From Escherichia coli O157:H7 (lineage in GTDB: Bacteria; Pseudomonadota; Gammaproteobacteria; Enterobacterales; Enterobacteriaceae), in the NCBI RefSeq assembly GCF_013167455.1, contig NZ_CP038328.1: a stretch of DNA of 64,000 nt; one strand, given 5' to 3'. A program made the position numbers and the translations under genes. This document shows positions 28,379 through 32,634 of the stretch, piece by piece. Within the stretch, counting starts at the first letter, position 1. Each line of letters begins with the position of its first letter. Under the pieces are notes generated by a model. It did no database searches. It was not told the origin of the DNA and worked only from the letters and a program-made list of their open reading frames with translations.

Positions 28379-29740
<1,362 letters not shown>

Positions 29741-29879
29741 AACGTGAGGAAATACCTGGATTTTTCCTGGTTATTTTGCCGCAGGTCAGCGTATCGTGAA
29801 CATCTTTTCCAGTGTTCAGTATGGTGCCTTGCACGGTAATTATGTCACTGGTTATTAACCAATTTTTCCTGGGGGATAA

Positions 29880-31019
29880 ATGAGCGCGGGAAGCCCAAAA
29901 TTCACCGTTCGCCGCATTGCGGCTTTGTCACTGGTTTCGCTATGGCTGGCAGGCTGTTCTGACACTTCAAATCCACCGGCACCGGTCAGCTCCGTTAATG
30001 GCAATGCGCCTGCACATACCAATTCTGGTATGTTGATTACGCCGCCGCCGAAAATGGGGACGACGTCTACAGCGCAGCAACCGCAAATTCAGCCGGTGCA
30101 GCAGCCACAAATTCAGGCTACTCAACAACCGCAAATCCAGCCAGTGCAGCCAGTAGCTCAGCAGCCGGTACAGATGGAAAACGGACGCATCGTCTATAAC
30201 CGTCAGTATGGGAACATTCCGAAAGGCAGTTATAGCGGCAGTACCTATACCGTGAAAAAAGGCGACACGCTTTTCTATATCGCCTGGATTACTGGCAACG
30301 ATTTCCGTGACCTTGCTCAGCGCAACAATATTCAGGCACCATACGCGCTGAACGTCGGTCAGACCTTACAGGTGGGTAATGCTTCCGGTACGCCAATCAC
30401 TGGCGGAAATGCCATTACCCAGGCCGACGCAGCAGAGCAAGGAGTTGTGATCAAGCCTGCACAAAATTCCACCGTTGCTGTTGCGTCGCAACCGACAATT
30501 ACGTATTCTGAGTCTTCGGGTGAACAGAGTGCTAACAAAATGTTGCCGAACAACAAGCCAACTGCGACCACGGTCACAGCGCCTGTAACGGTACCAACAG
30601 CAAGCACAACCGAGCCGACTGTCAGCAGTACATCAACCAGTACGCCTATCTCCACCTGGCGCTGGCCGACTGAGGGCAAAGTGATCGAAACCTTTGGCGC
30701 TTCTGAGGGGGGCAACAAGGGGATTGATATCGCAGGCAGCAAAGGACAGGCAATTATCGCGACCGCAGATGGCCGTGTTGTTTATGCCGGTAACGCGCTG
30801 CGCGGCTACGGTAATCTGATTATCATCAAACATAATGATGATTACCTGAGTGCCTACGCCCATAACGACACAATGCTGGTCCGGGAACAACAAGAAGTGA
30901 AGGCGGGGCAAAAAATAGCAACCATGGGTAGCACCGGAACCAGTTCAACACGCTTGCATTTTGAAATTCGTTACAAGGGGAAATCCGTAAACCCGCTGCG
31001 TTATTTGCCGCAGCGATAA
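29880..31019 (+). CDS. nlpD: lipoprotein NlpD (LysM, degenerate M23 peptidase)
   Basis: 379-aa ORF; lipobox LAGCS; PQIQ repeat tract. Confidence 0.9.
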
Positions 31020-31081
31020 ATCGGCGGAACCAGGCTTTTGCTTGAATGTTCCGTCAAGGGATCACGGGTAGGAGCCACCTT

Positions 31082-32074
31082 ATGAGTCAGAATACGCTGA
31101 AAGTTCATGATTTAAATGAAGATGCGGAATTTGATGAGAACGGAGTTGAGGTTTTTGACGAAAAGGCCTTAGTAGAAGAGGAACCCAGTGATAACGATTT
31201 GGCCGAAGAGGAACTGTTATCGCAGGGAGCCACACAGCGTGTGTTGGACGCGACTCAGCTTTACCTTGGTGAGATTGGTTATTCACCACTGTTAACGGCC
31301 GAAGAAGAAGTTTATTTTGCGCGTCGCGCACTGCGTGGAGATGTCGCCTCTCGCCGCCGGATGATCGAGAGTAACTTGCGTCTGGTGGTAAAAATTGCCC
31401 GCCGTTATGGCAATCGTGGTCTGGCGTTGCTGGACCTTATCGAAGAGGGCAACCTGGGGCTGATCCGTGCGGTAGAGAAGTTTGACCCGGAACGTGGTTT
31501 CCGCTTCTCAACATACGCAACCTGGTGGATTCGCCAGACGATTGAACGGGCGATTATGAACCAAACCCGTACTATTCGTTTGCCGATTCACATCGTAAAG
31601 GAGCTGAACGTTTACCTGCGAACAGCACGTGAGTTGTCCCATAAGCTGGACCATGAACCAAGTGCGGAAGAGATCGCAGAGCAACTGGATAAGCCAGTTG
31701 ATGACGTCAGCCGTATGCTTCGTCTTAACGAGCGCATTACCTCGGTAGACACCCCGCTGGGTGGTGATTCCGAAAAAGCGTTGCTGGACATCCTGGCCGA
31801 TGAAAAAGAGAACGGTCCGGAAGATACCACGCAAGATGACGATATGAAGCAGAGCATCGTCAAATGGCTGTTCGAGCTGAACGCCAAACAGCGTGAAGTA
31901 CTGGCACGTCGATTCGGTTTGCTGGGGTACGAAGCGGCAACACTGGAAGATGTAGGTCGTGAAATTGGCCTCACCCGTGAACGTGTTCGCCAGATTCAGG
32001 TTGAAGGCCTGCGCCGTTTGCGCGAAATCCTGCAAACGCAGGGGCTGAATATCGAAGCGCTGTTCCGCGAGTAA
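31082..32074 (+). CDS. rpoS: RNA polymerase sigma factor RpoS (sigma38)
   Basis: ORF 31046..32074; ATG 31082 ([14 protein letters not shown]) giving 330 aa; codon 33 GAG. Confidence 0.95.
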
Positions 32075-32193: not shown

Positions 32194-32634
32194 CTATGTG
32201 TTCATCATCTTGCGCACCAGCTGCACAAACAGCTCCTGCTCTTCTGCACTCAAACGCCCCAAAAATTCCTCATCCACGCTGTCACCAATCGGTATCGCCG
32301 CAGCAAGTATCTTTTCTCCTTCGGCAGTCAGCCAGACAAAGCGACGCCGCTTGTCAGCGGCATCATGTTCACGTCTGACTAAGCCACGATTCTCCATTCT
32401 TGCCAACATTTCTGCCAACGTTGCTTTGGTGCTGACTGCTGCTTCTATCAGTGCCACCTGTTCGATACCAGGCTTATCAGCAATGGCGCGCATCACCGCA
32501 TACTGTGGTTTGGTCAGGTCAGGTAACTCGTGCTGCCAGCGAGCCGTGTGCTGCTGAAAAAGCTGTCGTAACTGATGGAACGCTTTATTTCGTAACGTCA
32601 TGTAAACTCCGGGCAAACTATCTGCCGCTATCAT
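32194..32634 (-). CDS. MarR/SlyA-family transcriptional regulator
   Basis: 146-aa ORF (alternative start at 32601); winged-helix-type sequence; divergent from decarboxylase genes. Confidence 0.75.
   Translation of the reverse strand: MIAADSLPGVYMTLRNKAFHQLRQLFQQHTARWQHELPDLTKPQYAVMRAIADKPGIEQVALIEAAVSTKATLAEMLARMENRGLVRREHDAADKRRRFVWLTAEGEKILAAAIPIGDSVDEEFLGRLSAEEQELFVQLVRKMMNT

Follow-up and report, generated by a model that had tools for sequence, protein, structure and literature searches.

The window analysed here, a stretch of 64,000 nucleotides from Escherichia coli O157:H7, carries nlpD on its plus strand at 29880-31019, as located from the list of open reading frames, the Pfam domains of the product and the annotation of matching genomes. 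A 391-bp query spanning 29930-30320 matches, at 100% identity, O157:H7 genomes whose annotation names the gene nlpD, and the open reading frames of the window, together with the annotation of the 100%-identical genomes, place it between pcm and rpoS in the gene order surE-pcm-nlpD-rpoS. Read from the classical ATG, the frame encodes 379 amino acids; the RefSeq start is now a TTG at 29925. The protein opens with a lipoprotein signal peptide (29880-29957, plus strand, like all features described below), recognised in the translation and ending in the lipobox LAGC with Cys26; residues A24, G25 and C26 are invariant among 49 homologues, giving the lipobox cysteine expected of NlpD. A LysM domain follows at aa 123-165 (30246-30374; Pfam PF01476, E 2.8e-12) and then a Peptidase_M23 (LytM-type) domain at aa 279-372 (30714-30995; Pfam PF01551, E 4.6e-33), whose relatives in the PDB are the LytM domains of DipM and EnvC. 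This order of LysM and LytM domains is the architecture of NlpD, the LytM active site of which is described in the literature as degenerate (non-catalytic) and which activates AmiC (PMC5533458). Judged by its sequence, the window gene is NlpD, an outer-membrane amidase activator of the LysM plus LytM type.

Between Cys26 and the start of LysM at aa 123, that is, after the lipidated cysteine and before the first folded domain, lies a variable tract at aa 66-97, which consists of 47% Gln and 22% Pro and contains no charged or aromatic residues. To its left stands a conserved block at aa 50-60 (30027-30059; conserved in 120 homologue clusters), which includes a PPP motif at Pro55-57 that has been the subject of a separate study (PMC4176338), and to its right a second block at aa 98-121 (30171-30242) that is nearly invariant among 49 homologues. 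Both bordering blocks are conserved across the Enterobacteriaceae. In a comparison with the PDB, no solved structure covered the tract, and an AlphaFold2 model built from 49 close homologues was too poor to judge disorder, with a mean pLDDT of 35 and values below 50 even in the M23 domain itself. The composition of the tract and the want of a solved structure are both compatible with disorder. The N-terminal linker to which the tract belongs is one of two linkers in NlpD and is predicted to be disordered by DISOPRED; LysM is the determinant of septal localisation, and the N-terminal linker alone gives weak enrichment at midcell (Tsang et al. 2017, PMC5533458). When aa 29-64 are deleted, approximately 60% of NlpD is retained in the inner membrane and complementation is poor (El Rayes et al. 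2021, bioRxiv 10.1101/2021.01.05.425367). A role of the linker in Lol-dependent targeting to the outer membrane is known for aa 29-64, a part that lies before the tract.

A first-pass annotation of the window had described three tandem 24-bp units within nlpD, and these are found exactly at 30078-30101, 30102-30125 and 30126-30149. Read in frame, they become u1 (CAGCAACCGCAAATTCAGCCGGTG, encoding QQPQIQPV; 30075-30098), u2 (CAGCAGCCACAAATTCAGGCTACT, QQPQIQAT; 30099-30122) and u3 (CAACAACCGCAAATCCAGCCAGTG, QQPQIQPV; 30123-30146), and a degenerate fourth unit, u4 (CAGCCAGTAGCTCAGCAGCCGGTA, QPVAQQPV; 30147-30170), adjoins them; u4 is kept in the 48-bp deletions described below, lost in the 72-bp deletion and duplicated in the draft assembly L021. 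The original description ran the repeat to 30170, of which the three units are real and the remainder is u4, and it gave the peptide unit as the nine residues QQPQIQPVQ, which the in-frame reading corrects to eight. Tandem Repeats Finder reports the array at 30073-30142 with a period of 24, 2.9 copies and 71% matches, and a repeat search returned three 28-nt copies spaced 24 nt apart, the later two with 71% and 89% identity to the first. Identity between the units is highest for the non-adjacent pair u1/u3 (21/24), followed by u1/u2 (17/24) and u2/u3 (15/24). All three differences between u1 and u3 are synonymous, which suggests constraint on the sequence of the peptide as such.

The periodicity exceeds chance and is not a by-product of a composition rich in Gln and Pro. 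The best self-match of 48 nt in nlpD is 34/48 at period 24, a value reached by none of 300 codon-shuffled versions of nlpD (maximum 30) and by one of 1000 shuffles restricted to the codons of the Gln/Pro-rich linker, so that at least two head-to-tail copies stand beyond chance, as in loci with a variable number of tandem repeats (VNTRs). Exact matches between neighbouring units are short, the longest shared runs being at most 9 bp for u1/u2 and 5 bp for u2/u3. Longer runs join units further apart: an 11-bp run, CAACCGCAAAT, in u1 (30078-30088) has an exact partner copy 48 bp downstream in u3 (30126-30136), and the tail of u1 (CAGCCGGTGCAG, 30090-30101) forms direct repeats with the tail of u3 (CAGCCAGTGCAG, 30138-30149) at a distance of 48 bp and with the tail of u4 (CAGCCGGTACAG, 30162-30173), to which it is identical at 11 of 12 positions, at 72 bp. 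Nested within the array is a 9-bp tandem repeat, CAGCCAGTG CAGCCAGTA, encoding QPV QPV (30138-30155) and present in one, two or three copies among strains. This shorter repeat straddles the border between u3 and u4.

The surroundings of the tract were also searched for other kinds of signal. No Rfam match at E <= 1 was obtained within 29500-31500, no sigma-70-like site was seen in 29700-31100, where terminator-like hairpins occurred at chance level, and the tract contained no inverted repeats and was overlapped by no opposite-strand open reading frame of at least 60 aa. A regulatory or RNA role of the tract was rejected on these grounds, namely the want of an Rfam match, promoter-like site, inverted repeat or opposite-strand frame.

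Length alleles were counted in 5420 complete E. coli genomes, a clonally biased set. Most of the counts are BLAST identity bands, in which indels shorter than 9 bp are invisible, and the full sequence was inspected for 19 loci of complete genomes, comprising 17 variant alleles together with MG1655 and the divergent RM9387. The choice of search mode proved decisive, since megablast split or hid the indels and, with one record below 95% identity, made the copy number appear falsely invariant; in blastn mode, 63 of the 5420 genomes fell at 80-90% identity, 62 records beyond the single one of megablast. The band of 90-95% identity, into which a change of a single unit would fall, held no record in the blastn search of the same 5420 genomes. 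Deletions of 48 bp were counted with a synthetic query lacking two units, at 95% identity or more over a span of 343 bp, which gave 61 genomes, and the count was cross-checked by the 61 records that fell in the 90-95% band with a full-length synthetic query for the 72-bp deletion. A synthetic two-unit duplication query retrieved one genome, and the 9-bp alleles were found with short synthetic queries. The full-length query for the 72-bp deletion missed both genomes that carry it, with canonical genomes matching as two joined pieces at higher identity. Two otherwise unexplained genomes were recognised by their search behaviour, which pointed to a 72-bp deletion. A junction between the tail of u1 (CAGCCGGTGCAG) and that of u4 (CAGCCGGTACAG) was the most plausible for this deletion because 11 of their 12 bases match at a distance of 72 bp, and exactly two genomes match a 60-nt query of the predicted junction with one short flank. 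They come from two unrelated isolates, one from US cattle and one from a Chinese hospital.

The canonical length is found in 5345 of the 5420 genomes (98.6%), including the divergent RM9387. A loss of 48 bp, that is, of two units, leaving one unit and u4, occurs in 61 genomes; a loss of 72 bp, leaving one unit without u4, in two; and a 48-bp duplication, giving five units, in one (PapRG-04-4). One QPV sub-repeat is missing (-9 bp) in seven genomes and an extra one is present (+9 bp) in four, while changes of 24 bp in either direction were seen in 0 of the 5420. Copy number therefore differs between strains in the manner of a VNTR, with one, three or five QQPQIQxx units among complete genomes, and the steps are of 48, 72 and 9 bp rather than the single-unit changes at elevated rate that such a locus would display. 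Protein lengths of 355, 363, 376, 379, 382 and 395 aa were read directly from the alleles; all observed changes are in frame, and NlpD ranges from 355 to 395 aa in complete genomes, against 379 in the canonical form. Two further alleles come from draft assemblies. One E. coli draft, L021 (GCA_044690665.1), has a 72-bp duplication that is a perfect copy of u2-u3-u4 and predicts 403 aa from the classical ATG, and the draft L020 (GCA_026283405.1), from another Escherichia lineage approximately 91% identical to the window, has a seven-unit allele in which units 1-3 are repeated exactly as units 4-6. An independent protein collection holds a 363-aa cluster with 191 member sequences.

These data bear on the earlier suggestion that the copy number of the repeat may change and thereby alter the NlpD linker, for which a comparison of strains had been proposed as the check and invariance named as the outcome that would speak against it. 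Copy number is not invariant across E. coli genomes, and the suggestion holds, with 75 of 5420 genomes (1.4%) differing in length and every change preserving the frame. The suggestion is qualified in two respects: no single 24-bp step is seen, and the variation is rare. Slippage, which had been offered as the cause, is a probable mechanism judging from the structure of the junctions.

Every junction falls in the longest shared runs of non-adjacent repeats, either u1/u3 or the tails of u1 and u4. The deletions of the TW14359 and ECCWS199 types leave a hybrid unit with a u1-like start (CAG) and a u3-like end (ATC...CCAGTG), which places the crossover inside the 11-bp run CAACCGCAAAT that u1 and u3 share. 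The 48-bp deletion of the PEC145 type pairs the u1 tail (30090-30101) with the u3 tail (30138-30149) and leaves u1 intact, from which it follows that the exchange took place within the 7-bp run GTGCAGC. In PapRG-04-4, the duplication carries the reciprocal hybrid of the TW14359 deletion, with a u3-like start and a u1-like end; likewise, the 72-bp deletion uses the repeat shared by the u1 and u4 tails, and the 72-bp duplication of L021 is its reciprocal. One-unit steps are missing because adjacent units share short runs only (at most 9 bp for u1/u2 and 5 bp for u2/u3).

The events that change length recur. The 48-bp deletion is found on at least five nlpD SNP haplotypes and with at least two crossover points, each deletion carrying the local SNPs of its own background, and the +9 allele is found on two haplotypes; both observations establish recurrence. 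At the same time, individual alleles can be inherited stably, as follows from a single 48-bp deletion allele common to 28 O157:H7-type genomes (TW14359, EC4115, SS17, SS52 and JEONG-1266 included) that were sequenced by many laboratories. These 28 are part of the 307 complete genomes with the nlpD haplotype of the O157/O55:H7 type.

We account for these observations as follows. In the N-terminal tether of NlpD, a lipoprotein of the outer membrane, which links the lipidated Cys26 to the LysM domain, aa 66-97 form an octapeptide repeat of low complexity that is rich in Gln and Pro. The underlying DNA is an imperfect 24-bp array of old origin, the units of which have diverged mostly at synonymous sites. 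The poor match of adjacent units may then favour misalignment of the best-matching non-adjacent copies, in the pairs u1/u3 at 48 bp, the tails of u1 and u4 at 72 bp and the QPV copies at 9 bp, and the expected products would be reciprocal in-frame deletions and duplications. The structure of the junctions suggests replication slippage or unequal sister-strand exchange on homologies of 7-12 bp as the likely route. The linkers that result range from 24 aa shorter to 16 aa longer than the canonical one in complete E. coli genomes, and to 24 aa longer in one draft. Variant alleles persist in natural lineages, and exact repeat number is therefore probably not critical for function. The differences in tract length apparently represent ordinary, tolerated polymorphism, and we regard it as very probable that the explanation as a whole, a tolerated Gln/Pro linker repeat whose length changes through misalignment of non-adjacent copies, is correct. 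Within it, we infer both the slippage mechanism, from junction structure alone, and near-neutrality.

Three observations run counter to near-neutrality. The canonical length of 98.6% of genomes, combined with the narrow range of linker lengths among homologues, could reflect stabilising selection on length rather than a low mutation rate. The wholly synonymous differences between u1 and u3 point to constraint on the peptide. The harm done by the deletion of aa 29-64 indicates, in addition, that changes to the linker are sometimes damaging.

Several other readings were weighed against this explanation. It is very improbable that the length variants are artefacts of assembly or sequencing and that the true copy number is invariant: even if the 48-bp duplication is known from one complete genome alone, the 72-bp duplication and the seven-unit allele each come from a single draft assembly, and long-read assemblies can mishandle repeats, the array measures 96 bp, less than the length of every type of read employed, and its units can be told apart. 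The same 48-bp deletion, moreover, was recovered in 28 O157:H7-type genomes from independent projects and the 72-bp deletion in two unrelated isolates, every variant preserves the frame and has its junction where homology is best, and the 363-aa protein forms an independent cluster of 191 sequences. A contingency (phase-variable) locus, in which a hypermutable repeat would switch NlpD or the downstream rpoS, or diversify rapidly, is exceedingly unlikely. The units are imperfect (15-21/24 identity), all changes are multiples of 3 so that the frame is never lost, and 1.4% of genomes differ, with one deletion allele stable in 28 related genomes; these features outweigh the presence of a tandem repeat with recurrent variants in the gene of a surface-associated protein, upstream of rpoS and in the same operon. 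Neither promoter-like sites nor Rfam matches were seen in the tract or its vicinity, and a deletion in Salmonella nlpD was placed outside the rpoS promoter region (PMC3391293). The tract was also rejected as a phase-variable simple-sequence repeat of the usual kind, given its imperfect units, in-frame alleles and lack of a promoter-like site.

Selection on length calls for closer consideration. According to this reading, the length of the linker is a tuned functional parameter, setting the reach of the LysM and dLytM domains from the outer membrane or serving Lol extraction, and the variants are adaptive, one example being the protein, shorter by 16 aa, that has become fixed in a sub-lineage of O157:H7. 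A narrow span between Cys and LysM across genera (median 92 aa; 88-99 aa in 108 of 114 homologue clusters), a peptide repeat conserved despite synonymous drift and the mis-sorting of NlpD upon deletion of aa 29-64 agree with it, and the distance from the peptidoglycan layer has been discussed as a possible control of NlpD (Tsang et al., PMC5533458); as the same authors note, however, two long unstructured linkers make a simple limitation of reach unlikely, and Yersinia NlpD works without the repeat region (PMC2736372). The recurrence of the 48-bp deletion on at least five haplotypes fits tuning, but a mutational hotspot predicts it equally well. Shorter and longer alleles both occur, and the variants are rare and come from various hosts and sources without any recognisable ecological trend. 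Adaptive tuning is, on balance, unlikely. We consider it quite unlikely, too, that the recurrent 16-aa shortening is non-neutral and alters the sorting of NlpD to the outer membrane, or when or how strongly AmiC is activated, and hence envelope or cell-separation phenotypes. The shorter allele is fixed in the O157:H7 sub-lineage with TW14359, EC4115, SS17 and SS52 and occurs on at least four other haplotype backgrounds; if the proposal were true, the tract would give evolution a small means of tuning an activator of cell-division hydrolases.

The finding is a minor one and its significance is low, in-frame length variation in low-complexity linkers being commonplace. The repeat has been known since 1994, and a coding repeat of such low complexity would be expected to vary in length as this one does in E. 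coli. The locus nevertheless illustrates neatly, in natural strains, how the imperfection of repeats confines slippage to those non-adjacent copies that match best, and both reciprocal products have been recovered. The natural alleles of 355, 363, 376, 382 and 395 aa, together with the 403-aa draft allele, form a ready-made series of NlpD tether lengths, usable in studies of Lol sorting or amidase activation, for which earlier work had the artificial deletion of aa 29-64 only. In addition, the 48-bp deletion is a simple marker that can be sized by PCR (28 of 307 genomes with the O157/O55:H7-type haplotype).

The same segment in other genera is a degenerate stretch rich in Q, P and V with small indels of its own, and the Cys-to-LysM linker as a whole has a median length of 92 aa, with 88-99 aa in 108 of 114 homologue clusters. 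Citrobacter lacks 13 aa between QIQPV repeats, QPV copy number varies in Kosakonia cowanii, and in Salmonella a duplicated TPQQ/APQQ motif separates the 377-aa from the 373-aa clusters. In Yersinia, NlpD has no Pro/Gln-rich repeat region (Tidhar et al. 2009, PMC2736372). An nlpD mutation described in a laboratory-evolved UPEC creates a stop codon at Q187 and has no connection with the tract. In the literature searched, we found no report of length polymorphism of E. coli nlpD between strains or of an analysis of its junctions.

Among known systems, the closest is the repeat region of NlpD itself. The title of Ichikawa et al. 1994 (J Bacteriol 176:1630), as cited in PMC2736372, refers to an 'unusual amino acid repeat' in NlpD, and as far as that title and the account of Tidhar et al. 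2009 go, the gene and the tract are the same as those described here. The tract likewise belongs to the N-terminal NlpD linker studied by El Rayes et al. and Tsang et al.; the deletion of aa 29-64 made by El Rayes et al. leaves a single residue between its end and the tract (aa 66-97), so that the repeats lie outside the deleted part, whereas in the natural alleles 3, 16 or 24 residues are lost from the tract or gained in it, with aa 29-64 unchanged. A comparable change is the 12-bp in-frame deletion in nlpD of Salmonella Typhimurium UK-1, which Luo et al. (2012, PMC3391293) considered to be outside the rpoS promoter. Their report gives no position for the deletion in the protein; by our own reading, the reverse complement of the printed sequence is CGCCGCAACAAG, which fits the Gln/Pro segment of Salmonella and the difference between 377 and 373 aa. 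The case differs from ours in its genus and its 12-bp unit and in concerning a single strain, with no population census.

The tract may also be set beside coding minisatellites or VNTRs, in which direct repeats give rise to in-frame indels through replication slippage on short homologies. Compared with the usual coding VNTR, the nlpD repeats are imperfect, which is why the usual one-unit steps are absent and steps of 48, 72 and 9 bp take their place, and allele diversity is low, with one length in 98.6% of genomes, making the locus a poor typing marker. What it has in common with such loci are head-to-tail units, alleles that differ in copy number, reciprocal products and junctions that lie in runs of 7-12 bp.

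A long form of the Gln/Pro-rich repeat array in the N-terminal linker of NlpD comes from another Escherichia lineage, approximately 91% identical to the window, whose nlpD locus (L020, 1501-2718; GCA_026283405.1) encodes a protein of 405 aa with seven QQPQIQxx units. This seven-unit array arose through a perfect 72-bp duplication, and the tract ends in QPVK rather than in [10 protein letters not shown].

The array is bordered by conserved sequence on both sides. Directly after it, at aa 98-121 (window 30171-30242), lies the block [24 protein letters not shown], which was almost invariant across the 49 Enterobacteriaceae homologues compared, despite its position in a linker described as disordered. 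Judging from this sequence conservation, the block may represent an unrecognised functional or structural element ahead of LysM. To the left of the tract is a second block, [11 protein letters not shown] (window 30027-30059), the TPPP motif of which (Pro55-57) is a weak EF-P-dependent stall site (Starosta et al. 2014, PMC4176338).

Two alternative starts are in use for nlpD. The classical ATG at window position 29880 gives a product of 379 aa, and it is from this start that experimental papers number NlpD residues; the RefSeq/PGAP annotation begins at a TTG equivalent to window position 29925, giving 364 aa. Signal peptides of lipoproteins are expected to carry a positively charged n-region. 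Because the TTG start removes the residues that make up this region (K7, R11, and R12), the re-annotation looks doubtful on sequence grounds.

On the rpoS side of the locus, an ORF for a MarR/SlyA-type regulator of 146 aa lies just downstream of rpoS on the minus strand (window 32194-32634), and a MarR-family gene occupies the same place in L020 and in an E. coli draft assembly (L021). The annotation of E. coli 13E0725 (L008, 2144-2382) lists rpoS as a pseudogene with a frameshift; this strain also carries the nlpD allele lacking one 9-bp QPV sub-repeat. In the collection of 5426 E. coli genomes, the 391-bp nlpD segment had no match in six and was present in two places in one. Identity in this segment was merely 82% in RM9387, whose nlpD allele matches clusters named E. 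fergusonii.

Among the NlpD homologue clusters, an E. coli-like protein of 340 aa (P0031) is without aa 202-240, and the second NlpD linker therefore varies in length too. Products of 550-560 aa that join NlpD sequence to UbiD-family domains (P0047 and P0084) are probably fusions or mis-calls. In-frame indels analogous to those of E. coli affect the same segment in other genera (P0050, P0070-P0078, and P0037/P0039): in Citrobacter, a cluster with 284 members is 13 aa shorter between a pair of QIQPV motifs, QPV copy number is variable in Kosakonia cowanii, and Salmonella NlpD exists in two forms, of 373 and 377 aa.
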